Of a stretch of 64,000 nt of DNA, positions 5,040-25,975 are shown piece after piece. The notes below the pieces were generated by a model. It was given only the letters and a program-made list of their open reading frames with translations. It did not search any database and had not been told where the DNA came from. Position 1 is the first letter of the stretch. Every line of letters begins with the position of its first letter. The DNA lies in NCBI GenBank assembly GCA_963695095.1, contig CAVOFT010000001.1, positions 64,001 to 128,000 on the forward strand. Reading direction: 5' to 3'. The stretch comes from an uncultured bacterium (GTDB taxonomy: Bacteria; Krumholzibacteriota; Krumholzibacteriia; JACNKJ01). The position numbers and the translations under genes are program-made.

Positions 5040-6134
5040 TCACGCCAGCACCAGGGTCCCCGGCTGGCCGGACTCGACGCTGCCGATGAGCACCGCCTCG
5101 GCCACGCCTCCCGCCTGCAGCGCCGCGAGCAGGGCCTCGGCTTCGGCCTCCGCCACGGCGATGAGCAGGCCGCCGCTGGTCTGCGCGTCGCAGGCCAGCC
5201 ACAGCTGCGCCTCGCTCACCCCGGCGCCGCGCTTCAGGTGCGGCTCCACCGCCTTGCGGTTCGCGCGGCTGCCGCCGCAGAGCAGATCCTTCGCGATCAT
5301 CGCCAGGGCCTGCGGGTAGGCGGGCAGGGCCGCCGCTGACAGGTGGAAGCAGAGGCCCGCGCCGCGGGCCATCTCGAGCGCGTGGCCGGCCAGACCGTAG
5401 CCCGTGACGTCGGTGAGCGCGTGCACGCCGCGGGTGGCCGGCTCGCCGCGATCGGCGGCGCCGTCGGCGACGAAGGCGTCCAGCACTTCGGCTGCGCGCT
5501 TGTTGAGCCGCATCATGCCCGCCACGGCAGGGGCGACATCGTCATCGCCGAGCTCGCCCTTGCCGCGGCCGGCGAAGAGCGTGGCCGTGCCCAGGGGCTT
5601 GGTGAGGATGAGCCGGTCGCCGACCCGCGCGCCGGCGTTGGTGAGCACGCGGCGGGGGTGCACCAGGCCGGTCACGGCCAGGCCGTACTTCAGCTCGGCA
5701 TCCTTGATCGTGTGCCCGCCGGCCAGCGCCGCGCCCGCCTCGCGGATGGCCTCGTAGCCGCCCTCGAGGATGCGGGCCAGCTCGGCCTTGGGCAGCTGCG
5801 TCGGCGGGAAGCAGCAGATGTTCAGGGCGGTCACGGGCCGGCCGCCCATGGCATAGACGTCGCTCAGCGAATTGGCGGCGGCGATGCGGCCGAAGGTGAA
5901 GGGGTCCTCGACGATGGGCGTGATGAAGTCCAGGGTCTGCACGAGGGCCAGCTCGGGCGAGAGACGATAGACCCCGGCATCGTCCGAGGTGTCGAGGCCC
6001 ACGAGCAGGTTCTCGACACGCTCGGCCCGGATGTGGCCGATGATCTCGCGCAGGTCCTCCGGACCCATCTTGGCGCTTCAGCCGCCGGCCGAAGCGAAGT
6101 CCGTGAGGCTGCAGCGCAGCCCCTCGTCGCTCAC
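5040..6134 (-). CDS. selD: Selenide,water dikinase (selenophosphate synthetase), selenoprotein with Sec at codon 19 (UGA at 6078-6080)
   Basis: GTG at 6134 after a purine-rich RBS reads VSDEGLRCSLTDFASAGG-UGA-SAKMGPEDL in one frame. Downstream motifs DDAGVY, LVQTLDF, AANSLSDVYAMGG, GGHT, TDVTGYGLAGH, DAQTSGGLL. Confidence 0.94.
6052..6066 (-). promoter_or_regulatory. Bacterial SECIS hairpin in selD mRNA
   Basis: mRNA reads UGA, 11 nt (AGCGCCAAGAU), then GGGUCC-GGA-GGACCU stem-loop with a G-containing apical loop. Confidence 0.75.
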
Positions 6135-6166
6135 GGGCGCTCCCTTCTCGTGGCCTGTTACACCGC

Positions 6167-6230
6167 AAGATACCGCAGCCGCCGGGCCTGTCAATCGAGG
6201 CATTGACAGGCCGCCGGGGCGGCTTTTCTT
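6167..6230. promoter_or_regulatory. Divergent sigma70-type promoters for selD and rex, with back-to-back TTGACA boxes forming an 11-bp inverted repeat
   Basis: GGCCTGTCAAT-N6-ATTGACAGGCC at 6185-6212. Minus strand TTGACA-16-TATCTT; plus strand TTGACA-16-TTTCTT (weaker). Confidence 0.55.
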
Positions 6231-6279
6231 GTATTCAGGATTCGGCGCTCCTCTATGGGGCCGGCGGAGGCGGGCGAGC

Positions 6280-6936
6280 ATGAGCATCCGGCAGGACAAG
6301 ATCCCCGCAGCCACGCTGCAGCGCCTGCCGGTCTACCTCTACCGCCTGCAGACGCTGCAGGCGGACGGTGTGGGCCGGGTGAGCAGCCGGACGCTGGCGG
6401 CCCAGTTGCGCATCAACTCCTCGCGCCTGAGGCAGGACTTCCACCACTTCGGCGGCTTCAGCCGCCCGGGCCAGGCCTACGAGGTGGCGCATCTCGTCGA
6501 GCGCCTGCGGGAGATCCTCGCCCTCGGCCAGGCGGTGGACTACGTGATCGCCGGCGCCGGCTACCTGGGCCAGGCGATCGCCGCCTATCCGCGCTTCGAG
6601 GAGGACGGCTTTCGCCTGGCCGGCATCTTCGACATCAATCCCAAGCTCATCGGCCTGCGCTTCCGCGGCGTGGCCGTGCAGGATCTCGAACTGCTGCCCG
6701 CGCTGGTGGGGCGACTCGGCGTCAAGCTCGGCGTGATCACGACCTCCCCCGAGGCGGCCCAGAGCGTCGCCGAGCGGATGGTGGCGGCCGGCATCACCGG
6801 CATCTGGAACTTCGCGCCGGTGGGCCTGCAGGTCCCCGAGGGCGTCACGCTGCAGGACGAGTTCCTCTCGGCCGGGCTGATGGCCCTGCACTACCGCATG
6901 CAGGAGGGCGAGCGCGGACCCGAGCGCCGGCGCTGA
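6280..6936 (+). CDS. rex: Redox-sensing transcriptional repressor Rex
   Basis: IPAATLQRLPVY, VSSRTLA..RLRQDF winged helix, GAGYLGQA Rossmann fold, GIWNFAP. Confidence 0.93.
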   Translation: MSIRQDKIPAATLQRLPVYLYRLQTLQADGVGRVSSRTLAAQLRINSSRLRQDFHHFGGFSRPGQAYEVAHLVERLREILALGQAVDYVIAGAGYLGQAIAAYPRFEEDGFRLAGIFDINPKLIGLRFRGVAVQDLELLPALVGRLGVKLGVITTSPEAAQSVAERMVAAGITGIWNFAPVGLQVPEGVTLQDEFLSAGLMALHYRMQEGERGPERRR

Positions 6937-6941
6937 GCGCG

Positions 6942-6969
6942 AAAAACCCCGGGGCGATCGCCCCGGGGT
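6942..6969 (-). terminator. Intrinsic terminator for a minus-strand transcript; may also act on rex
   Basis: Perfect palindrome ACCCCGGGGCGATCGCCCCGGGGT with a U5 tract on the minus strand only. Confidence 0.75.
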
Positions 6970-7059
6970 CCGCCTTGCTACCCTTTGTGTATCCTGGCCA
7001 CGGGAGGAGCGGAATCCGTTCCGCCTTCTAGCCTCCGCCCTGCGACGTGCTTCCCACGC
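6942..7059 (-). ncRNA. Candidate small RNA (~118 nt), GGA-rich
   Basis: Bounded by promoter TTGCCG-17-TATACT (7093-7065) and the U-tailed terminator. No credible ORF inside. Hairpins GUG-GGAAG-CAC and GCGGAA-CGGA-UUCCGC. Confidence 0.55.
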
Positions 7060-7064
7060 AGACC

Positions 7065-7093
7065 AGTATAGCAGGCCCCTGCCGGCGCGGCAA
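7065..7093 (-). promoter_or_regulatory. Sigma70-type promoter with extended -10
   Basis: TTGCCG-N17-TATACT, with TG preceding the -10 as TGCTATACT. Confidence 0.6.
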
Positions 7094-7356
7094 GCCTTCC
7101 GATCGCGTATCGTGATGATGTGCAACGGGTTAGATTCCCAATTCGCCCTCGAAATGCCCCATCGGGGCCCATGGGGGCGAGGGCTTCGCCGGGGCGATCT
7201 GGGAGATCACGCCCACTTGCCCCTAGCGGGTCGCGCCGGGTGGAGCCGCTGCGGGAGGTGGCGGTTAAGCCGCTATTTGGCAATGGCTTGGGTGACTCAT
7301 TCGGCAGGGTCCGCGTGTCCTGCAACTCTGCGTCCGCTTCGATGTCCGCCTTGCGA

Positions 7357-7386
7357 TTGAGACCCCATGGCCCGATAGTGCATAAT
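7357..7386 (+). promoter_or_regulatory. Putative promoter for the Cys-rich gene pair
   Basis: TTGAGA-N18-CATAAT. Confidence 0.35.
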
Positions 7387-7451
7387 CACGGCAGGTCGGA
7401 GCTCCTCTAGCAGCATCCTCCAGCTCGCCAGTGCCACGGGAGTGCGCATCG

Positions 7452-7943
7452 ATGTCCATTCGCGCGGGTTCAAGCACGGTTGCCCTCGCCGCCCTGGCGC
7501 TGTGGTTGGCGCTGTGGCCTGCAGCCGATGCGATCACCGGCGCCTCGAACACCGTGCTGGACCTGTCGTCCCCCGGCGCCGCCCCGACCGCCCATTGCGC
7601 CGACGCCCCGGACGAGCTTTCGGATTGCGCCAGCGCCCCCTCGTGCAGCCGGATGCTCGCAGCGAATCAGGGCGCCAAGGCCTGCGGCGACACGCGCTCC
7701 CGCTGTGCCACGGACCCGATCCCCGACAGCGAAGGCGATCTCGCTTGCGCGGGCACGAACGCTGCCCGCTGCGGCCAGTGCCAGTGCATCGGCGGCCTCG
7801 TGCTCTTCGCCGCCTCGCCGCCCCAGTTCAGCCCCGACCTCGAGCTGGTCGGCACGCTGAGCGCCGCCCGCTTCGACGAGGCGTCACGCTGCCCACGCCC
7901 GCTGCTCCGCCCGCCGATGGCAAATCTGTCGAACACCGCCTGA
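7452..7943 (+). CDS. Cys-rich leader-type protein with C-terminal RPP motif (DUF2946/CruR/CutF-like architecture)
   Basis: N-terminal hydrophobic helix, 10 Cys including CGQCQC, ends SRCPRPLLRPPMANLSNTA. Confidence 0.55.
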   Translation: MSIRAGSSTVALAALALWLALWPAADAITGASNTVLDLSSPGAAPTAHCADAPDELSDCASAPSCSRMLAANQGAKACGDTRSRCATDPIPDSEGDLACAGTNAARCGQCQCIGGLVLFAASPPQFSPDLELVGTLSAARFDEASRCPRPLLRPPMANLSNTA

Positions 7944-7996
7944 AGCGCGTGCCCTGCACGCACCACCAACACCATTGCATCGGGAGATCGATCCAC

Positions 7997-8491
7997 ATGA
8001 ATCGGAAACGCATGATTGCGCTCGCGACGGCCCTCGCCGTCATGGTCTTCGCCGCGGCCCTCGCCGTGGCCGATGAGAAGCCCGCCCCGCCGGCGCCCGC
8101 CGCCGGCTGCAGCCCTGGCTGCACCGCCACTTGCACCGGGGCCGCGAAGACGGCCGCCGTGCCGGCGGCCGCGGCACCGGCAAGTTCCGGAAGCGAGGAG
8201 GCCACGCTCAAGGCTCACATGGAAGCCTGTGTCAAGGCCTGCGCCGCAGCCTGCAAGACCGGCGACGCCAAGGCTCACATGGAGGCCTGTGCCAAGGCCT
8301 GCGCCGAAGCCTGCAAGACCGGCGACACCAAGGCTCACATGGAGGCCTGTGCCAAGGCCTGCGCCGAAGCCTGCAAGACCGGCGATGCCAAGGCCCATGC
8401 CGCAGCTTGCGCCAAGGCCTGCGCCGCGGCCTGCAAGCCCGCCAAGCTCAGCCCGAAGGATCGGGGGGCCGGCTTGACGCCGAAGCGCTAG
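7997..8491 (+). CDS. Secreted Cys-rich tandem-repeat protein, putative metal-binding
   Basis: GGGAG RBS, signal peptide MNRKRMIALATALAVMVFAAALAVA, CSPGCTATC, then four KAHMEACxKACAxACKTGD-type repeats; 15 Cys. Confidence 0.8.
   Translation: MNRKRMIALATALAVMVFAAALAVADEKPAPPAPAAGCSPGCTATCTGAAKTAAVPAAAAPASSGSEEATLKAHMEACVKACAAACKTGDAKAHMEACAKACAEACKTGDTKAHMEACAKACAEACKTGDAKAHAAACAKACAAACKPAKLSPKDRGAGLTPKR
8210..8445 (+). repeat. Four tandem 60-bp coding repeats
   Basis: Unit AAGGCTCACATGGAGGCCTGTGCCAAGGCCTGCGCCGAAGCCTGCAAGACCGGCGAC... recurs at 8210, 8270, 8330 and 8390 (last copy diverged). Confidence 0.95.
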
Positions 8492-8513
8492 CCGGCGAGC
8501 TTGCTGCGAAGTC

Positions 8514-8549
8514 GAGGCGCCCGCGGGCTTCACCCGCGGGCGTCTTCTT
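8514..8549 (+). terminator. Putative intrinsic terminator
   Basis: GAGGCGCCCGCGGG-CTTCA-CCCGCGGGCGTCTT followed by CTT. Confidence 0.55.
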
Positions 8550-8619
8550 GCCCTCGAGCGCCATTGAGCCGGCAGCGGGATCGCAAGTGCGGCGCCCCGC
8601 CGGCTGTCCGCGCGGATCG

Positions 8620-11085
8620 TCAGCGCGCCAGCACCAGCTTGCGGACCTGGCGCTCGCTGCCGGCGCGCAGCTCGCAGAAGTAGACGCCGCTGGGCAACTC
8701 GCGGCCGTCCGCCGCGCGGCCGTCCCAACTCAGTGCGTGCTCGCCCGCAGCGCGCTCGCCGTCAACGAGTACCCGCAGCAGGCGGCCGGCGGTGTCATGC
8801 ACGGCCAGGCGCACGTGCGCCACCGCCGGCAGGCGGTATTCGAGGCGCGTCGTCGGGTTGAAGGGATTCGGGTAGTTCGGCGCGAGGGTGAGAGCGCTTG
8901 CCGGCAGCTCGGGCACCCCGACGAAGACGCCGAACTCGGCGATCATCCAGTCGCTGAAGGCGGTCTGCTCGCCCACCGTGAGCCAGTTCGCCGCCTGGTC
9001 CACGGCGATCGGGTGCTTGGGCCCTTCCCAGGCCGCACCTCCCCAGCGCCAAAGCCCCAGGCTGTCCTCGTCGGCGCCGTTCAGCTCGTCGTCGAGGTAA
9101 CTCAGCGTGAGGTCGAAGAGCGCGCCCTCGCCCGTAGCGTCGATCGTGTAGTAGCGCTGCAGGCCGCCCGGCGCCAAGGGGTGTTGCTCGCCGGGATGCA
9201 CGAGCATGTCGATCGCGCTGAGCGTGCCCACTTCCGCCAGGTTGACCTTCGCCTTCACGCGGCCGCCGAAGAGGTATTCGCCGGCGCCGCCGATGGCACG
9301 CTGATGCCGGGTGCCCGTGTACTCGAAGGCGCCGATGTCCACGCACCAGCCGCCATTGGCGGGCACCGCGGTGGCCGGGCTGCCGGTCTCGATGCAGGGC
9401 GAGTCGTAGAGCAGGGTAAAATCGCGGGCCGCGGCGTCCGTGAAGCGCGGATCCCCGAGCTGCTCGTACTGCGAGGTGATGAGCGCGTTCGTGTTGCCGA
9501 TCGCGTTCCCGTGGAAAGCGTTGTAGCCGATGGCGAAGGCGATCGCCGCGTGAGCGCCGATGCCGTCACTGCCCGCGACGTCGTGGTCGCAGACGATGTT
9601 GTTCTCCACGTAGGAGGCCGCGCTCGTGCCCAGATAGATTCCGCTGCCGGCGCCTCCCTCGATGGGATCGAGGGTATTCGCGTTGCCGACGACGGTGTTG
9701 TTGCGCAGCGACGTGCGGTAGCCGCCGCCGGTGTAGATGCCCCCACCGTAGCCGACGTCCTCGGTGCTGGCGACGTTCCCCCAGACCACGTTGCGCTCGA
9801 TCGTATTGGTCGACTCGTAGGTAATGCCGCCACCGTACCCGATGCCGTGTACGCAGGCGGTGTTGCCGATGATGGCATTCTCCCGGAAGTCCGTGTTGCT
9901 GTCCGCGAGAAAGGCGCCGCCACCCGAGCCAGTGTGGCCGGCGCTGGTCGACGTCGAGGCCCGATTGTCTTCGATCCAGTTGCCGCGGATGACGGCACCG
10001 CTGCCCGTGCAGATACCGCCGCCGCTGCCGTTGCCGCGCACCGAGGACACGTTCCCCGTGATGCTGCAATCGAGGATCTGCACGCCGGTACCGTTGACCA
10101 GATTGATGCCCCCGCCGCTGCCCTGGCCGCCGCTGGCCTCCGCGGCGACGTTGTCCGTGATCGTGCAGTTCTGCACAACGGCGGTACTGGCATAGCAGTA
10201 GAGGCCGCCCCCGTTGCCGCCCACGCCCGAACTCAGGGTCGAGGCGGTGTTGCCCGCAATCTCGCACTCGCGGAGTTCGCCGCTGCCGCCGTAGTAGGCG
10301 ACGCCCCCGCCGCCGCCGACACGGGCCGTGGAGCCGCGGTTGCCGACGATCGCGCAGTCGTGGATCTCGGCATAGCCGCTGCTAGCAACGTACACGCCGC
10401 CACCGTAGGCGTACCAGGCGCTGGAGCCGGTATTGTTGTCGATCCGGCAGTGGCGGATCTCGGCCGCCGTGCCCGCGCCACGCACGCTGATGCCGCCGCC
10501 GTTGCCGTTGAAGGTGTGGCCGGCCAGGTTGCCAGTGATCCGGCAGCGCTCCACGATGGGATCGGCGCCGCCGTTCACGTCCAGCCCGCCACCGTAGCCG
10601 TAGTTGGGATCGCCCTCGCTGGTGCCGTCGCCGCCGGTGAGTGTCAGGCCGCGCACGATCGTCACCGAGCTCACCGCGGCGCCGCTGATCGTCATCACGC
10701 GGCAGGTGGCGTCGGCCTGCACGATGCACTGGCTCGAGTCCGGCAGCGCCGCGTCCCAGCTCGCATGCGTGCCGTCGTCCGAGCCGAGGCAGCGATCGCT
10801 GCTCAGGACGACGGCCTCGCCGACCGGGTAGAGGCCGTACTTGACCAGGATGGTGTCGCCGGCCGCCGAGGCGGCGATGGCCGCCGCGAGCGTTTGCTTG
10901 GCCGTGGCCCAGGCGAGGCCGTCGCCGCTGTTGTCCGGCTGCGCAGCGTCGGCGAACCAGGTGGCCGCGCGGGCTTCAGCCCCGCCCCCGGGGGCCGGCC
11001 CGAGCGCCAGTACAGTGGCCAGGAGTGCCGCGGCATGGACCTGCCAGGCTGTGATCCCGAGCGGAGAACGACGATGGAAGCCCAT
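8620..11085 (-). CDS. Secreted right-handed parallel beta-helix repeat protein with FlgD-Ig-type C-terminal domain
   Basis: Signal peptide, repeated GGG(I/L)..C.I.GN units, DFTLLYDSPCI..DIGAFE motif, tail NYPNPFNP..WDGR..SGVYF..RKLVLAR. Confidence 0.85.
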   Translation of the reverse strand: MGFHRRSPLGITAWQVHAAALLATVLALGPAPGGGAEARAATWFADAAQPDNSGDGLAWATAKQTLAAAIAASAAGDTILVKYGLYPVGEAVVLSSDRCLGSDDGTHASWDAALPDSSQCIVQADATCRVMTISGAAVSSVTIVRGLTLTGGDGTSEGDPNYGYGGGLDVNGGADPIVERCRITGNLAGHTFNGNGGGISVRGAGTAAEIRHCRIDNNTGSSAWYAYGGGVYVASSGYAEIHDCAIVGNRGSTARVGGGGGVAYYGGSGELRECEIAGNTASTLSSGVGGNGGGLYCYASTAVVQNCTITDNVAAEASGGQGSGGGINLVNGTGVQILDCSITGNVSSVRGNGSGGGICTGSGAVIRGNWIEDNRASTSTSAGHTGSGGGAFLADSNTDFRENAIIGNTACVHGIGYGGGITYESTNTIERNVVWGNVASTEDVGYGGGIYTGGGYRTSLRNNTVVGNANTLDPIEGGAGSGIYLGTSAASYVENNIVCDHDVAGSDGIGAHAAIAFAIGYNAFHGNAIGNTNALITSQYEQLGDPRFTDAAARDFTLLYDSPCIETGSPATAVPANGGWCVDIGAFEYTGTRHQRAIGGAGEYLFGGRVKAKVNLAEVGTLSAIDMLVHPGEQHPLAPGGLQRYYTIDATGEGALFDLTLSYLDDELNGADEDSLGLWRWGGAAWEGPKHPIAVDQAANWLTVGEQTAFSDWMIAEFGVFVGVPELPASALTLAPNYPNPFNPTTRLEYRLPAVAHVRLAVHDTAGRLLRVLVDGERAAGEHALSWDGRAADGRELPSGVYFCELRAGSERQVRKLVLAR

Positions 11086-11249
11086 GATCCCGTCCCTTCC
11101 CAAGCCGGTTGCGAGGGCCGGCCGGCAACGCAGCTCAGCGCCGGCAGTGCCCGCGGACAAGGAGCCAGGGAGTAGGAACCTCGGGTGGCGGCGCCGTCAC
11201 AGCCAGTGGCGGCGAAATCGCGCCCTGGAGGGTGCGGGCGCCAGCCGAT

Positions 11250-20237: not shown

Positions 20238-22649
20238 CTAGCGCGCCAGCACCAGCTTTCGCTCCCAGCTCCCCGCCGCGCTGTGCAAGCGGGCCAGATA
20301 GAGCCCGCTGGCCAGGGCATGGCCGGCCTCGTCGCGGCCGTCCCAGATGAAGCTCCGCTCCCCGGCGGGCAGGAGCCCCGCATGGAGCATGCGGAGCCGG
20401 CGGCCCTGCAGGTCGTAGATGGCCAGCTGGGCCTGGCCGCTCGCCGCCAGGCTGAGGCGCAGGGTGGTCTGCGGATTGAAGGGGTTGGGATAGGCGTCCA
20501 GACGCCCGGCCGCTGCCAGGGGGCCCCCGAGGGCGGGCAGCTCGATGAGGCGCAGCATGCGCTCCTGGCCCAGGACGTCCCGCTCCAGCAGGCGATAGCT
20601 GAGCGCGCCCGCCGGCGCCTCGCCGTCGAGCAGGCTGAACAGGGGCCCGCCGGTCAGCGGCACGGGCGTCAAGCGGCGCCAGGCGCCTTGCCCCTCCCGC
20701 CGCTCGAGCAGGAAGCCGGCGCTCGCGTCCTCCCAGGCCACTTCCCAGCGCAACCAGACGCCGTCATCCCCGCGCTCGGCGCGGAACCAGGCGAGGAAGA
20801 CGGGGATGGCCTCGTCGCCGAGGATGGCCACGCCGTTGCGGTCGTCGGCGACGAAGACGTGCGGCCCCGACACGGTCGCGTCCAGGGCCCGGCCGCCGGT
20901 GTCGTAGTAGCCCGCCTCGGTCGGCTGATAGGGATTGCTGACATCGATGACGCGCAGGCCGTCGCCATAGTCGGAGACGTAGGCGTAGGGTCCGGAGATG
21001 TGCACCTTGCGCGCCGAGTCCACGGTGTCGTAGAAGCCGATCTCGACGGGACTCGCTGGATTGCTGATGTCCACGATGCGCAGGCCCCGCGTGTAGGCCG
21101 CCACGTAGGCGTAGTTGCCGTTCACGTCCACGCCCCAGGCCGCATCGACCAGCAGCAGGCTGCCCAGTTCCACCGGAGCGTCCGGATTGCTGATGTCGAC
21201 GACGCGCAGGCCCTGCGGGCCGTCGGCCACGCAGGCCAGGTTGCCTTCCACGGCGACATCGTAGGCGTAGCCGGGCGTGTTGAGCGTGCCGCGGCGGACG
21301 GGCGCGCTGGGGTCGCTCACGTCCACGATGATGAGTCCGGCTTCCGAGGCCGCCACGCAGGCCATGTCCCCGGCGAGCGCAATGGCCCGAGTGCCGGCGC
21401 CGCTCAGGGAGAGGTTGGCCAGCAAGGTCGGATTCGCGCGATCGCTCACGCTCACCACCTTGAAGCCCGGCGTATAATCGGCCAGGTAGGCCAGGTCGCC
21501 ATTGATCGCCACGTCGTAGGCGTAACCGGGGGTGTCCAGACGCGCGACGCGCTCGGGCGCCAGCGAATTGCCGACGTCGAGCACCACCAGGCCCAGGCGA
21601 TTGGCGGCCACGTAGACGAAGGAGCCGTCGGTGGCCACCCCCTGGCAGTAGTCGCCGGACTCCAGCGTGCTCACGGTCACCGGATCCAGCGGATCGGCCA
21701 GGTCCATGGCGACGAGGCCGCCGCCCCAGTCGGCCACCCAGGCGTGGCCGCCACCGACGGCGACGCCGTAGGCCGCCACCGGCGTGTTCTCGATGCTCAT
21801 CAGCGTGGGCAGCGCCGGGTTGCTCACGTTGATCACGACGAGGCCGTCGGCGTCGTCGGCCACGTAGGCCAGGCTGTCCACGACCTCCACTTCCCAGGCG
21901 AAGCTGAGGGTGTCGTAGAAGCCGACCTCGTAGGGAGCCGTGGGATCCGCCACGCTGAGGATGCGCAGGCCCGCATTCTGGTCGGCGATGTAGGCGAGCG
22001 TGTCCACGACTTCCACGCGGAAGGCGCCGCCGGGCGTATCATAGAAGCCGATCTCCGTCGGGTGCGCGGGATCGCTGATGTTGATGATGCGCAGGCCGGC
22101 GCTCCAGTCGGCGACATAGGCCAGCGTGTCCACCGCGCAGACGCCGTGGGCGCGATCCGGCGTGTTGTAGCTGCCGAGGGTGACGGGGTGCGCGGGGTCG
22201 CTGACATCGACGATGCGCAGGCCGTCGAAGTACTCGGCGAGCAGGACCAGCGTGTCGCGCACGGCGACATCGTAGGTGTACTGCGCGGTCTTGGAGTGGC
22301 CCACCTCGACGGGCTGCGTGGGATCGGAGACATCGATGATGCGCAGGCCGTCGGTCCAGGCGCTCGTGTAGACGTAGTCGCCGGCCTGATCCATGCCGAT
22401 CGTGGGCCCCGGCACGGCCACCTGGCCCAGCGCGACGGGATTCGCCGGGTCGCTCACGTCGGCGATAGAGATGGAGCCCCCGTTGCCGTAGAAGACCAGC
22501 CCCGCGTCCCAGTTGGCGCCATAGCAGGGACCGTCCGGCCAGCGCGAGAGCAGCAGCAGGTTCTGGCTGTCGCCGGTGTCGCGATCCTGGGCCGCAGCCG
22601 AAAGGGGCAGACTGACGAGCAGGGCAAGGACAAGGGTGCTGCGCTTCAA
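20238..22649 (-). CDS. Secreted LVIVD-repeat protein with FlgD-Ig-type C-terminal domain
   Basis: Probable TTG start at 22649 after GAGG, signal peptide, many AYVAD..GLRIIDVSDP..P.EIG.YDT repeats, tail YPNPFNP..RKLVLAR. Confidence 0.9.
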   Translation of the reverse strand: MKRSTLVLALLVSLPLSAAAQDRDTGDSQNLLLLSRWPDGPCYGANWDAGLVFYGNGGSISIADVSDPANPVALGQVAVPGPTIGMDQAGDYVYTSAWTDGLRIIDVSDPTQPVEVGHSKTAQYTYDVAVRDTLVLLAEYFDGLRIVDVSDPAHPVTLGSYNTPDRAHGVCAVDTLAYVADWSAGLRIINISDPAHPTEIGFYDTPGGAFRVEVVDTLAYIADQNAGLRILSVADPTAPYEVGFYDTLSFAWEVEVVDSLAYVADDADGLVVINVSNPALPTLMSIENTPVAAYGVAVGGGHAWVADWGGGLVAMDLADPLDPVTVSTLESGDYCQGVATDGSFVYVAANRLGLVVLDVGNSLAPERVARLDTPGYAYDVAINGDLAYLADYTPGFKVVSVSDRANPTLLANLSLSGAGTRAIALAGDMACVAASEAGLIIVDVSDPSAPVRRGTLNTPGYAYDVAVEGNLACVADGPQGLRVVDISNPDAPVELGSLLLVDAAWGVDVNGNYAYVAAYTRGLRIVDISNPASPVEIGFYDTVDSARKVHISGPYAYVSDYGDGLRVIDVSNPYQPTEAGYYDTGGRALDATVSGPHVFVADDRNGVAILGDEAIPVFLAWFRAERGDDGVWLRWEVAWEDASAGFLLERREGQGAWRRLTPVPLTGGPLFSLLDGEAPAGALSYRLLERDVLGQERMLRLIELPALGGPLAAAGRLDAYPNPFNPQTTLRLSLAASGQAQLAIYDLQGRRLRMLHAGLLPAGERSFIWDGRDEAGHALASGLYLARLHSAAGSWERKLVLAR

Positions 22650-23000
22650 GATGTACCTCTTCGCGTTCGGGCCGAGCATCCGGCCGAAGCTGCAAGAGAC
22701 ATGCCCTGGCCGCGCCGGTGACCGGTTCCGGATGGAGCCGGGGACGCGGGGGAAGGATGCACCGCGCCACGCCCGGTTGACCCGCGCGGGACCCCTCTCG
22801 CCTTGCGCGGCAGCGGCGGGAGGATGGCGGAACCTAATAGCGTCACATCGATCGTGCAATCCCGACCCGCGGGCGGCCCGGGCGGGGGAAGGCGATTTCC
22901 CTGTCTGTTCATCCAGTGCTTTGCTAGCCTGCCACTGAGTAATCACTGTTTCGCCCGGCGCCGGGCTGCCGGGCGGCGGCCTCCGGGAGGATAGTGTAGC

Positions 23001-24554
23001 ATGTCCACGCAGCGCCTGCATCGAACCCCGCGTTTCGGTATTCCGATTCTCTGGCTGGCCCTCGCCCTTGCCGGCTGCGCCCAGCGTTCGCAGGGCCCGC
23101 CGCTTGCCGAGGGGCCGCCGCTCTTCGCCCGTGTCGAGGAATTCCGCCTGGACAACGGCATGCTCTGGCTCCTGCTGCCCCGACAGGACGTGCCCAGCAT
23201 CGCCGCGCGCATCCTCGTCAAGGTGGGCAACGTGGACAACCCGCCGGGGGACTCGGGCCTCGCCCACATGTTCGAGCACATGGCCTTCAAGGGCACGGAC
23301 GCAATGGGCGCCATTGATGCTGCCGCGGAGGCCGCGGTGCTCGACACCATCGGCGCGACCGGCGACAAGCTGCGCGATGCGATGAAAGCTGCCGCCCCCG
23401 ACACGGCCTTGATCGAAACCCTGCAGGCCAAGCTGGCGGAACTCGAGTCCCGGGCGGCCGCCTACGCCGAGCCCATGGCCCTCTTTCAGCTCTACGACCG
23501 CTTCGCCTACGACTACAACGCCCGCACGGGCCAGGACTTCACAGTCTACGAGGCCCTCGTGCCTGCCAACGCGCTCGAGGCCTGGATGCTCATCGAGAGC
23601 GAGCGCCTGCAGCACACCGTCTTTCGGGAGTTCTACGCCGAACTCGGCGTCGTCAAGGACGAGCGCCGCATGCGGCGCGACGACAGCCCGGAAGGCATGG
23701 CCTGGGAGTTGATGCAGACCCTCGCCTATGGGGACCACCCCTATCACAACCCCACCATCGGCTGGGAAGAGGACCTGAGCGCGCTTTCCCCCAATCTGGC
23801 GCGAGCCTTCTACGCCACCTACTACGTGCCCGGCAACATGGTGGCGGCCTTGGTCGGGGACTTCGATCCGGTCCAGGCCCGCCAGCTCATCGTCGACTAC
23901 TTCGGCGACTTGGCGCCGGGGCCCTCTCCGCCCGGTATCCCGATGCAGGTCGAGCCGCCGGTCAGGCAGCAGCGAGACGTGCACCGCCAGGGTGACGAGC
24001 GGGAGCTGCTGATGGCCTTTCCCGGCCTGCCGGCCGACTCGCCGCAGCTTCCGGCGGCCCAGATGCTCGCCGAGCTGCTGGCCCGCGACCGCACCTCGCG
24101 CCTGACGCGGCGGCTCGACATCGAGGCCGGCATCGCCCGCGATGTCAGCGCCTACCCCGACGCCGGCTTCAAGCGGGCGCCGGGGCTCTTCGTCATTGGC
24201 GTTGAGATCATGCCCGACCGCAGCAACGAAGAGGCGGAGGCGCTGATCTGGGAGGAACTCCAGCGCCTGCAGGAGCAGCCGGTGGCGCCTGCCAAGCTGC
24301 TCGAGATCTCCTCTGCCGAGCGCAAGATCTTCGTGTCTGGTCTGCAACGCAACGCGTTCCTTGCCGATCGCCTCATTCGCATGCAGGCAGGTTGCGGAGA
24401 CTGGCGCGAGATCTACCGCCGGGTGGCCGCCTACGCGGCGGTCACGCCGGAGGCCGTCCGCAGTCTGGCCCAAAGTCTCTTCGTCCCCGAGCGGGCTACC
24501 ATCGTCTACCTCGAGCCCGAGTCCGCGGAGGGCGGGCAAGGAGGTCAGCCATGA
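23001..24554 (+). CDS. M16 family zinc peptidase, catalytic subunit (lipoprotein)
   Basis: LAGC lipobox, GLAHMFEHMAFKGT (HxxEH), HPYHNPTIGW, YYVPGNM. Confidence 0.92.
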   Translation: MSTQRLHRTPRFGIPILWLALALAGCAQRSQGPPLAEGPPLFARVEEFRLDNGMLWLLLPRQDVPSIAARILVKVGNVDNPPGDSGLAHMFEHMAFKGTDAMGAIDAAAEAAVLDTIGATGDKLRDAMKAAAPDTALIETLQAKLAELESRAAAYAEPMALFQLYDRFAYDYNARTGQDFTVYEALVPANALEAWMLIESERLQHTVFREFYAELGVVKDERRMRRDDSPEGMAWELMQTLAYGDHPYHNPTIGWEEDLSALSPNLARAFYATYYVPGNMVAALVGDFDPVQARQLIVDYFGDLAPGPSPPGIPMQVEPPVRQQRDVHRQGDERELLMAFPGLPADSPQLPAAQMLAELLARDRTSRLTRRLDIEAGIARDVSAYPDAGFKRAPGLFVIGVEIMPDRSNEEAEALIWEELQRLQEQPVAPAKLLEISSAERKIFVSGLQRNAFLADRLIRMQAGCGDWREIYRRVAAYAAVTPEAVRSLAQSLFVPERATIVYLEPESAEGGQGGQP

Positions 24555-25975
24555 AGGCACTGAGGCTCGCCTTGCTGCTGCTCGCGCTGAACGCCGTCGC
24601 GCTGACGGCCACCGAGACGCCGCGCCATATCGATGCCCTGGAACTCGGCGAACTGGCCATCGCCGTGCCCGAGCCGGCGACCTTCACGCTGGCCAACGGC
24701 ATCCGCGTCTACCTGTTCGAGAACCACGAGCTGCCGCTGGTCGCCCTGACGGCTCAGGTGCCCATGGAGGTCCGCTTCCTGCCCTTGGCCGAGGGCATGG
24801 CCTTTCAAGCCATGAGTAGCCTGTGGCGGGAAGGCGGCGCGGGCGATCTGTCGCCCGCTGCCGTCGACGAGCAGGTCGCGGCTCTCGGCCTGCAATTGGA
24901 CGCCGGGGCCGGCGGTGGCCGCGGGCTGGTAGATATCCTCATGATGAAGGAAGACCTGGCCGCGGGCTCGCTCTTGTGGCGGGATCTCTTCCTCCGCCCC
25001 GCCTTCGACGCCGAGCGCCTCGAGCGGACGCAGGCGCAGATCATCAAGGACCTGCAGGGTATCAACGACAATCCCGCGTGGCTGATCGAGCGCTGGTTCA
25101 ACCGCTTGCTGGCGGGTCCCGATACGCCTGGCTGGCACGTGACCACGCGCGCTGACGTCGAGGCCGTGACCCGCGAGGCGATCCTCGCCCTGTACGGGAA
25201 TTTCGTGCGCCCCGAAGCCACGGTGATCGGCATCGCGGGGGACATCGATCTCCGCGAGGCCCGCAAGCGGATGCAGGCCCTGTTCGGCGACTGGGCCCCC
25301 CCCGCCGCCGCCGCACTGCCCGCGCCCGTGGCCTGGGAGCGCTGCCCCCAGCCCGGGGTCTATCTGCTGCCAGGCGATTTCAGCCAGTGCCATGTGCGCC
25401 TCGGCCGCCCGATCGACGACCTCACCGAGCGCGACGCGGACTATCCCCTCTCCCGCCTGCTCGACTACGGTGTGGGCTACAACCGCGTCTACATGCGAAC
25501 GCGCCGCGAAGGGCTCTCTTACGGTACGGCCACCCGCCTGACGGCCGATGCCGTCTGGGCGCAGTTCTATGGCTTCGGGAGCACGGCTCCCGATCAGGTC
25601 GTCGACTTGATCCGGGCCATCCGCGAGGAGGTGGCGGCGATCGAGGCCCGCCCCCTGGATGCCGACGAGCTGGCCGGTTCGCGCACTTTCTTGATCGGCA
25701 GGGAACTGCGCTCGTTCGAAACGCTCTCGGGGATCGTGAATCGGCGCTTGGGCGACCTGCTCACCGGTCGCGGCGAGGACTACGCCGAGCGCATGATCGC
25801 CGGCCTCCAGGCTGCCGACGAGGCGAGCCTGGCGGCGGCCGCTGCCCGCTGGATGGACTTCGGCCCCGCGCCAGTATTGCTTGTGGTCGGCGCACCGGAG
25901 GGCGGCGCCGCCGCACTCGAAGGCCTGGGCCTCGGGCCGGTCACCGTGCTCGAGCCCGTGCGTTTCGGGGAGTAG
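24551..25975 (+). CDS. M16 family peptidase, non-catalytic partner subunit
   Basis: TLANGIRVYLFENHELPLV, R..EGLSYG motif, no HxxEH; ATGA coupling. Confidence 0.88.
   Translation: MKALRLALLLLALNAVALTATETPRHIDALELGELAIAVPEPATFTLANGIRVYLFENHELPLVALTAQVPMEVRFLPLAEGMAFQAMSSLWREGGAGDLSPAAVDEQVAALGLQLDAGAGGGRGLVDILMMKEDLAAGSLLWRDLFLRPAFDAERLERTQAQIIKDLQGINDNPAWLIERWFNRLLAGPDTPGWHVTTRADVEAVTREAILALYGNFVRPEATVIGIAGDIDLREARKRMQALFGDWAPPAAAALPAPVAWERCPQPGVYLLPGDFSQCHVRLGRPIDDLTERDADYPLSRLLDYGVGYNRVYMRTRREGLSYGTATRLTADAVWAQFYGFGSTAPDQVVDLIRAIREEVAAIEARPLDADELAGSRTFLIGRELRSFETLSGIVNRRLGDLLTGRGEDYAERMIAGLQAADEASLAAAAARWMDFGPAPVLLVVGAPEGGAAALEGLGLGPVTVLEPVRFGE

Follow-up and report, generated by a model that had tools for sequence, protein, structure and literature searches.

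In a 64,000-nucleotide (nt) stretch of DNA from an uncultured bacterium of the Krumholzibacteriota (GenBank assembly GCA_963695095.1, contig CAVOFT010000001.1, positions 64,001 to 128,000 of the forward strand; hereafter the window, with coordinates counted from its first letter), we identified a two-gene locus that may act as a self-contained ‘sense and sponge’ unit for metal. Its first gene (7452–7943, + strand) encodes a leader protein of 163 amino acids (aa) built like the metal-sensing leaders CutF and CruR. Its second gene (7997–8491, + strand) encodes a putatively exported Cys-repeat protein whose four 20-aa units place one His and three Cys at helical spacing. Multi-metal binding by the thiolates of this protein is quite probable. 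For the fuller reading, in which the protein soaks up or stores periplasmic Cu(I) in the manner of Csp1 or a metallothionein and is itself under copper control, including both copper as the metal and control by the leader, we estimate a probability of roughly 55%.

The Cys-repeat gene spans 164 codons plus a stop. Its product comprises a signal peptide (about residues 1–25, read by eye from the sequence as MNRKR, a hydrophobic stretch and AVA followed by DEKP), a Pro/Ala linker containing CSPGCTATC (residues 38–46, nt 8108–8134), four 20-aa helix-turn units (residues 72–151, nt 8210–8449) and, at the C-terminal end, a conserved basic tail, KLSPKDRGAGLTPKR. The units, in frame at residues 72–91, 92–111, 112–131 and 132–151, follow the 20-residue consensus KAHMEAC(A/V)KACA(E/A)ACKTGD(A/T), and Tandem Repeats Finder reported them at 8200–8441 with a period of 60, 4.0 copies, 89% matches and a score of 352. 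The 15 Cys lie at positions 38, 42, 46, 78, 82, 86, 98, 102, 106, 118, 122, 126, 138, 142 and 146 and the His at 74, 94, 114 and 134, giving ten overlapping CxxxC motifs and neither CxxC nor CC. An earlier note on this DNA, made from the letters alone, had described a signal peptide, a single CxxxCxxxC, four 60-bp repeats and 15 Cys, with H, C, C and C at i, i+4, i+8 and i+12; the 164-aa open reading frame (ORF) contains all of these elements, and the register recurs in 4/4 units. The proposed export by Sec rather than by twin-arginine translocation (Tat) likewise stands, as the signal is of Sec type by sequence and the N terminus, MNRKRMIALATALAV, contains no RR, nor do those of the orthologs (MKRTRII and MMNRKTLL). 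The genome does encode TatC; the Tat route thus exists in this organism but is not used by the Cys-repeat protein.

An AlphaFold2 (AF2) model of the protein, built on a four-sequence alignment, predicted helices at residues 65–86, 91–106, 111–126 and 131–146, connected by four-residue K-T-G-D loops. On a helical wheel of units 2–4, the Cys/His face lies 140–160 degrees from the Lys/Glu/Asp face, with Ala in between; the single-helix permutation control of this separation is weak, with about 8% of permutations reaching the observed value. Both the predicted helices and the wheel agree with the four amphipathic helices, His and Cys on one face, that the note had proposed. Residues 62–150 (89 residues) contain 32 Ala, 13 Lys, 12 Cys, one Leu, one Val and no aromatics, which is a metallothionein-type composition; the classical CxC/CxxC/CC clusters are absent from the window protein and present in a relative on contig L063. 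Because the core face would consist of Cys, His, Met and Ala with scarcely any bulky hydrophobics, the bundle is probably held together by metal–thiolate clusters.

Conservation and codon usage indicate that the gene is real. Our profile searches covered 208 genomes of the phylum; the window genome is designated G000, other genomes carry G-numbers and contigs L-numbers. Full-length orthologs of the Cys-repeat protein were found in both other genomes of the genus, at E values of 1.7e-54 and 1.5e-28. The reading frame has a GC content of 0.84 at third codon positions (GC3), compared with 0.64 at first and 0.66 at second positions, and differences from the G002 ortholog number 49 at third positions and 31 and 27 at the others, corresponding to 33 synonymous and 47 non-synonymous codon differences. 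Upstream of the two genes lies a promoter-like site (TTGAGA, 18 nt, CATAAT; 7357–7386, + strand), identified by consensus match only (10/12) as the + strand member of two such sites in 6800–8800, where shuffles gave an expectation of 0.0. Downstream, a GC-rich 14-bp hairpin overlaps a U-rich run (8514–8546, + strand; minimum free energy –38.4 kcal/mol, z –2.16, 5/200 shuffles equally stable); a simple terminator scan gave no call there. Judged from these sequence signals, site and hairpin likely bracket leader and Cys-repeat gene as one transcription unit. Contigs of one RNA library on 7915–8065 and 8207–8357, with 9 and 3 differences, respectively, give a weak hint of its transcription. In sequencing runs, 0.05–0.12 of words matched, and contigs of 151 nt covered parts of the stretch, none of them spanning the repeats. 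The exact protein and three orthologs (L002, L003 and L018) were absent from a 15-billion-protein collection in which the neighboring leader is present, and gene callers probably miss or mis-start the Cys-repeat gene. Ala/Cys-rich repeat genes in high-GC genomes may be subject to such errors systematically.

The repeat units record a history of homogenization. In the window, units 1–3 share 56–58 of 60 nt, and unit 4 shares 43–44/60 with the others. Units 1–3 of G002 share 49–55/60, the positional orthologs of window and G002 share 46–51/60, and the units of G117, a genome of another family, display the same within-genome uniformity (58/60). Four units are present in all four close relatives and in G117. 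As the units are more alike within a genome than between species while the four-unit layout is shared, the layout is old and kept uniform by concerted evolution. The recent tandem duplication assumed in the note is therefore only partly borne out, by the near-identity of units 1–3 within the genome. Similarly, its suggestion of a storage capacity varying with repeat number agrees with the differences in unit number and length between genera, but every representative of the genus (three genomes and metagenome contig L059) has exactly four, pointing to a constraint from structure, for instance a unit of four helices.

The case for regulation starts from the leader ORF and from two published counterparts. 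CruR (Bp2923 of Bordetella pertussis, DUF2946/PF11162) is described as having an export signal, an invariant CXXC, poor predicted structure and a RAPP arrest motif three residues from its end, with 45 residues to the CXXC, a distance conserved within 1–2; when the nascent chain senses copper, the arrest is lifted and Rho-dependent termination is set off (PMC9426467). CutF (Rhodobacter capsulatus cutFOG) is reported to carry a Sec signal, CxxxC and a proline-rich C-terminus, and periplasmic Cu prolongs its stalling, whereupon a stem-loop masking the Shine–Dalgarno (SD) sequence of the next gene melts (PMC9973294; bioRxiv 10.1101/2025.02.05.636593). By the published rules, a CutF-like protein is shorter than 150 aa, has PP among its final 15 residues, carries a signal peptide and has a neighbor on its own strand, and most of those with a Cys motif are stated to precede Cu-homeostasis genes (PMC9973294).

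The window leader (7452–7943, GC3 0.87), which has conserved counterparts in front of the Cys-repeat gene in the two other genomes of the genus, resembles these proteins in anatomy. It begins with a putative export helix (residues 4–28, AF2 predicted local distance difference test (pLDDT) 79–95), the only confidently modeled part, and continues into a variable Cys-rich middle; residues 35–144 have pLDDT values below 50 and are predicted to be disordered. The export signal was judged from this helix together with a conserved LALWLxLWPA motif followed by an AxA-like site. Two elements toward the C terminus, the CxxC of C107 and C110 (nt 7770–7781) and the Pro-Pro of P154 and P155 (nt 7911–7916, nine residues before the stop), are invariant in 10/10 sequences of the leader alignment A4, as are W18, W22, P23, A24, C99 and P150. 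No indel occurs between C110 and P154 in any of the ten, leaving 43 residues between them throughout. The proline motif reads LLRPP or RPPVPPP and places PP within the last 15 residues. In a collection of 5.8 billion proteins, the leader family, which is restricted to this lineage, formed 30 clusters, 0 of them with a Pfam domain and with ‘hypothetical protein’ as the only source name. These database relatives are 111–170 aa long, and 27 of the 30 carry C-x-[QRK]-C, with a single Cys-to-Pro spacing value in each subgroup of those 27. Divergent Cys motifs are found in G099 (CRC) and G170 (CC). By anatomy, the leader is thus CutF/CruR-like; membership in DUF2946 is not supported by its sequence. 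A six-frame search of the window genome gave no PF11162 match at E ≤ 0.01, and matches above cut-off in the phylum were confined to 3/208 genomes, where they belong to different, RAPP-bearing genes. In canonical DUF2946 genes of other genomes of the phylum (L041, L042, L043, L044 and L046), CxxC and C-terminal RAPP lie 43–46 residues apart.

Leader and Cys-rich partner travel together across genera, with the leader as the constant part. Relatives of the window Cys-repeat protein occur in a few genera among the 208 genomes, all in one lineage, and each of them has the conserved leader ORF in front. The leader was examined at 17 distinct loci (the window, G001, G002, G012, G017, G093, G095, G098, G099, G115, G117, G119 and G170 and contigs L027, L059, L062 and L063), with weak matches outside these in G008 and G097 (E 0.007–0.009). 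In 17/17 loci an exported Cys-rich low-complexity protein is encoded directly 3′ of the leader on the same strand, two of these proteins running off the contig and one being partly masked. Their signal peptides and the mature start A-[DE]-[DE]-K-P are conserved; their bodies are not. Four 20-aa units characterize the window, G002, L059 and G117, the body of G001 consists of 24-aa units, that of G017 of about seven units of 12 aa (AAACAAKCKSGD), and that of G099 of C-x6-C units, while G119 has a short two-helix form and L063 a classical CxC/CxxC metallothionein-like body. Among ten tabulated downstream proteins, the nine unmasked ones have 7–35 Cys; CxxxC occurs 2–12 times and CxxC in 0 of 10, and 0–5 residues of L/I/V/F/W/Y follow residue 30. 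Flanking genes differ between genera in the ten cassette contexts compared. A second ‘Cys-rich’ ORF of G001 (L032:11336-11662) was rejected, as it looked like a non-coding frame. The versions of genus g8 (L020 1995–2735, L021 614–1420 and L062 877–1518) carry, between two kinds of Cys repeat, a conserved His/Met-rich block of the pattern HGGHHA.MGHKMM ... ACVGMC.VGEGPACP.HRA, possibly a metal site in its own right or a segment for docking.

The spacer between the two genes offers a possible point of control. It measures 53 nt in the window (7944–7996, + strand), with 82% mean column identity in a three-species DNA alignment, and 50–67 nt in 10/10 loci. It contains a conserved small hairpin, GCGTGC-CCT-GCACGC (7947–7961, + strand), and, 10 nt upstream of the start codon, the SD sequence GGGAG (7982–7986, + strand) inside a conserved GGGAGATCGATC block. 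Pairing of the SD with the last 78 nt of the leader was predicted with a probability of 0.41 in the window and 0.39–1.00 across loci, exceeding 95% of shuffles in 5/10. Separately, the SD with its spacer, GGAGATCGATC (palindrome GATCGATC; 7982–7994 in the window, also in L018 and L017), is conserved across two families (g1 and g58) beyond the needs of an SD alone and may be part of an anti-SD pairing or a protein-binding site.

Taken together, we infer metal binding and its metal, a Cys-inside bundle fold, leader stalling and the direction of regulation, as follows. The product of the second gene would be exported unfolded via Sec and, in the periplasm, bind many soft metal ions, most likely Cu(I). 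Its ligands would be the thiolates of 12 Cys, which run as CxxxCxxxC stripes along four short amphipathic helices and are helped by one His (in the window species also one Met) at each helix start and by the linker CxxxCxxxC. Together with His/Met, the twelve Cys could accommodate some ten or more Cu(I). Folding would be metallothionein-like on a Csp-like helical scaffold, with metal–thiolate clusters holding the bundle. The leader, apparently a short-lived peptide with a regulatory role, would as a nascent, co-translationally exported chain sense metal through its Cys motif, and a ribosome pausing at its near-terminal Pro-Pro would control translation of the Cys-repeat gene. With a short gap and possible SD masking, the CutF mode fits, whereas the CruR mode depends on Rho and an extended spacer; by analogy with CutF, periplasmic metal would increase synthesis of the sponge. 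The link to copper comes mainly from the leader, whose CutF/CruR-like build, a point absent from the note, independently supports a role with copper or another soft metal. The role of such a sponge could be either defense or a store for oxidase assembly.

Several results weigh against this reading. On the leader side, no Pfam family matched at E ≤ 10, PF11162 was matched by 0/10 members at the same threshold, and an hhalign comparison of A4 with five canonical RAPP-bearing DUF2946 proteins of the phylum (A6) gave a probability of 0.8% (E 0.069, 15 columns). The proline motif is not RAPP, and at 163 aa the window leader exceeds the <150-aa filter of PMC9973294. SD pairing in the window (0.41) is no better than in shuffles (mean 0.56), and folding of 7890–8020 revealed no excess stability (z +1.19). 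Metal-homeostasis families were found neither among 76 neighboring ORFs scanned with Pfam (of 133 candidates in the ten cassette contexts, the others being cassette genes, short overlapping frames or ORFs at locus ends) nor among 14 further window ORFs. The AF2 model of the Cys-repeat protein is of only moderate confidence (pLDDT 66–76 in the repeats and 58 overall, predicted template modeling score 0.41), and Csp is absent among the fold-search matches shown by Foldseek and a wide structural search (VIA), which are generic helical ones only. The RNA-library contigs could stem from DNA carry-over or from a relative. Because respiration in this organism uses oxidases, thiols in the periplasm could still become oxidized without Dsb enzymes. 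Lastly, CutF-like proteins are stated not to be all copper-specific, and some are reported to precede Ni/Co genes (PMC9973294).

This last point, together with the failure to find copper genes among the ORFs scanned near the cassette, speaks for a general periplasmic metallothionein with the same architecture and leader control but a different specificity, for a thiophilic metal or metalloid other than copper (Zn, Cd, Hg, Ag or As). Four His/Cys layers contributed by four helices could make tetrahedral S4 or S3N sites, and the L063 relative resembles a classical Zn/Cd/Cu metallothionein. We nevertheless consider another metal unlikely. Met stands beside His in the window (HM), in G001 (HGM) and in the His/Met-rich segments of g8, a neighborhood typical of periplasmic Cu(I)/Ag(I) sites. 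Published Cys-motif leaders are mostly Cu-linked according to PMC9973294, and the tabulated members, with CxxxC and no CxxC, match the intrahelical Cu(I) geometry reported for Csp3 (PMC5519932, PMC5171941).

The same Cys could instead form inter-helix disulfide ladders of the twin-Cx3C small Tim type, stapling helical hairpins in a protein whose role is structural or at any rate unrelated to metal. Sequence comparison with PDB gave a weak match to a Tim10/DDP twin-Cx3C protein (E 0.019 by sequence, E 0.076 by profile), an Ala/Cys core needs some cross-link, and terminal oxidases are present, so oxygen is around. The substitutions seen among relatives argue against such ladders. The window His aligns with Cys in G001, in G117 and in unit 1 of L059, the middle Cys of the window units aligns with His in the G001 units, and in one unit of G117 Arg occupies the first ligand position, a His in the window; replacements of this kind would leave partners unpaired. 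A ladder would give no role to the His conserved in the Cys-stripe register, and the gene stands behind a metal-sensor-like leader. Furthermore, DsbA (PF01323), DsbB (PF02600), VKOR (PF07884) and the DsbA-like Thioredoxin_4 (PF13462) had no match at E ≤ 1e-3 in the 93.5%-complete window genome, in which controls matched. Cys/His swaps, few bulky hydrophobics, the odd Cys count (15) and the missing Dsb/VKOR matches favor metal thiolate/imidazole ligands over disulfides, and we regard the latter as improbable. Least credible of all is a thiol buffer or carrier, which would sacrifice its thiols to oxidants or electrophiles in the periplasm or carry sulfane sulfur/polysulfide, for although thiol density is high and Rex (window, G001) and rubrerythrin (G115) are neighbors, these neighbors are not conserved, no Rex box was found in the window, and the regular helical placement of His and Cys and the CutF-like leader would be left unexplained.

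Searches beyond the lineage bear on the origin of the Cu(I) sponge. A Pfam scan of the Cys-repeat protein at E ≤ 1 returned only TIL, Globin and Peptidase_M49, all below cut-off; PF03860 (DUF326) matched neither this protein nor, at E ≤ 1, anything in the whole genome, and NCBIfam yielded 0 families. PDB sequence searches gave only designed helical repeats and Tim10 (E 0.007–0.08). The best Foldseek row against PDB was SmbP (3u8v; E 0.97, TM 0.20/0.34, root-mean-square deviation 8.1), followed by cytochrome b562 variants, and the VIA search peaked at Z 6.8 with generic helical bundles and designed repeats. A word-indexed protein search placed 0/8000 scored candidates at E ≤ 0.001, the query protein itself included. 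A full HMMER scan of 1.84 billion representatives gave four matches and no informative relative beyond the lineage: two eukaryotic repeat proteins, judged spurious by eye, one match to the signal peptide only and a fragment of 57 aa that coincides exactly with the beginning of the G002 ortholog. The best score of an ESM Atlas search was 0.82, to unnamed clusters that provided no lead. The note had likened the protein to the Csp copper storage proteins. As a working principle this comparison is plausible, CxxxC being the Cu(I) site within one helix that Csp3 favors. Membership of Csp/DUF326 is not supported by sequence, and neither Foldseek nor VIA gave Csp among the matches shown.

The most specific form of the copper reading can be offered only tentatively, at somewhat below even odds. 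It would be a convergent modular copper store, in which helices of 20 aa (H/C-x3-C-x3-C-x3-C plus a turn) are copied in tandem and gene-converted and, after Sec export, assemble outside the cytoplasm into a minimal Cu(I)-clustered four-helix bundle. A new branch of metal-sensing stalling leaders would gate its synthesis, and the whole would form a portable cassette with a fixed leader and a reinvented body, be it helical repeats, 12-aa units or a metallothionein-like form.

Further features of the genome touch on the locus. A gene for a Rex-type redox repressor lies upstream of the cassette (5989–6936, + strand) and about 4 kb from it in G001; a search of the window for Rex operators gave 0 matches at up to three mismatches. 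Rubrerythrin is the cassette’s neighbor in G115. Copper is used in the envelope of this organism, whose genome contains two loci for heme-copper oxidases and a single HMA P-type ATPase and gave no match to multicopper oxidase (PF07732). The window organism may be without a dedicated periplasmic disulfide-forming system. On the opposite strand, a right-handed beta-helix protein (8620–11160) and an LVIVD-repeat protein (20241–24683), both large and secreted, end in FlgD_ig/Por_Secre_tail-like domains, which suggests that a type IX-like sorting signal is widely used in the lineage.

Few copper stores are exported, and the described ones have Tat signals; Tat is regarded as a route for folded proteins. 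If correct, the copper reading would add a second route, independent of the first, by which Cu(I) is stored or made harmless in the envelope, and a natural minimal scaffold for metal–thiolate clusters that would interest protein designers. It would also extend nascent-chain metal sensing, by a leader unlike DUF2946, to another phylum, with a metal sponge as a new class of output in place of a pump, oxidase or importer. The pairing of one conserved sensor with many unrelated Cys-rich bodies amounts to a natural experiment on what sensor and sponge each need.

Like CutF and CruR, the window leader heads its operon and combines an export signal with a Cys motif and a near-terminal proline motif at a fixed distance from it, predicted disorder, a short gap to an exported downstream protein and possible SD masking. 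Its PP follows the CxxC by 44–45 residues, about four fewer than in Bp2923 (48–49). The leader family is 141–170 aa long and has extra CC pairs, unlike CutF and CruR. The regulated gene here encodes a Cys-repeat protein, a class of neighbor that is not named in the parts of PMC9973294 consulted.

Bacterial metallothioneins of the SmtA type resemble the Cys-repeat protein in their high Cys content, the lack of an aromatic core and probably metal-driven folding. SmtA is cytosolic, whereas the window protein is made with an export signal, contains regular helical repeats and has neither CxxC nor CC beside its CxxxC; the phrase ‘periplasmic metallothionein’ was not found in the literature searched. 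SmbP of Nitrosomonas europaea is a small periplasmic helical bundle with short sequence repeats that binds several metal ions, its ligands being His rather than Cys. It was the top Foldseek row for the window protein (3u8v), yet the match is not significant (E 0.97).

Csp proteins are described as homotetramers that bind Cu(I) at high stoichiometry with an affinity of about 1e-17 M. In reported crystal structures of Csp3, Cu(I) prefers CXXXC pairs formed within a single helix, and these alternate with sites between helices (PMC5519932, PMC5171941). Such single-helix CXXXC motifs are shared with the window protein, and Csp3 is described as forming tetranuclear thiolate clusters; its own features are a cytosolic location, the absence of repeats, membership of the DUF326 family and 18–20 Cu sites in a long bundle. 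The closest known counterpart is Csp1 (MtCsp1/MtCsp2 of Methylosinus trichosporium and NGO1701 of Neisseria gonorrhoeae; DUF326/PF03860). It is likewise small, exported and helical, with Cys along one face of four helices, CxxxC motifs and His/Met at helix ends, and the 15 Cys of the window protein equal in number the roughly 13–15 Cu(I) per monomer reported for Csp1 and NGO1701 (PMC7558416; bioRxiv 10.1101/2025.05.01.651437). For Csp1, the same sources name as hallmarks a Tat signal, an apo-bundle that is rigid, and assembly into a tetramer (PMC7558416; bioRxiv 10.1101/2025.05.01.651437). The window protein, without sequence relationship or structural match to it, has instead a Sec-type signal, so that it must fold and load metal outside the cytoplasm. 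Its helices, of about 16 residues and derived from tandem 20-aa repeats, contrast with the long helices of Csp1, its Cys keep a strict i+4 spacing with no CxxC, and, with scarcely any bulky hydrophobics, a stable apo-bundle like that of Csp is doubtful. The Cys-repeat protein is most likely a functional analog of Csp1 rather than a member of its family, with an origin separate from that of the known copper storage proteins.

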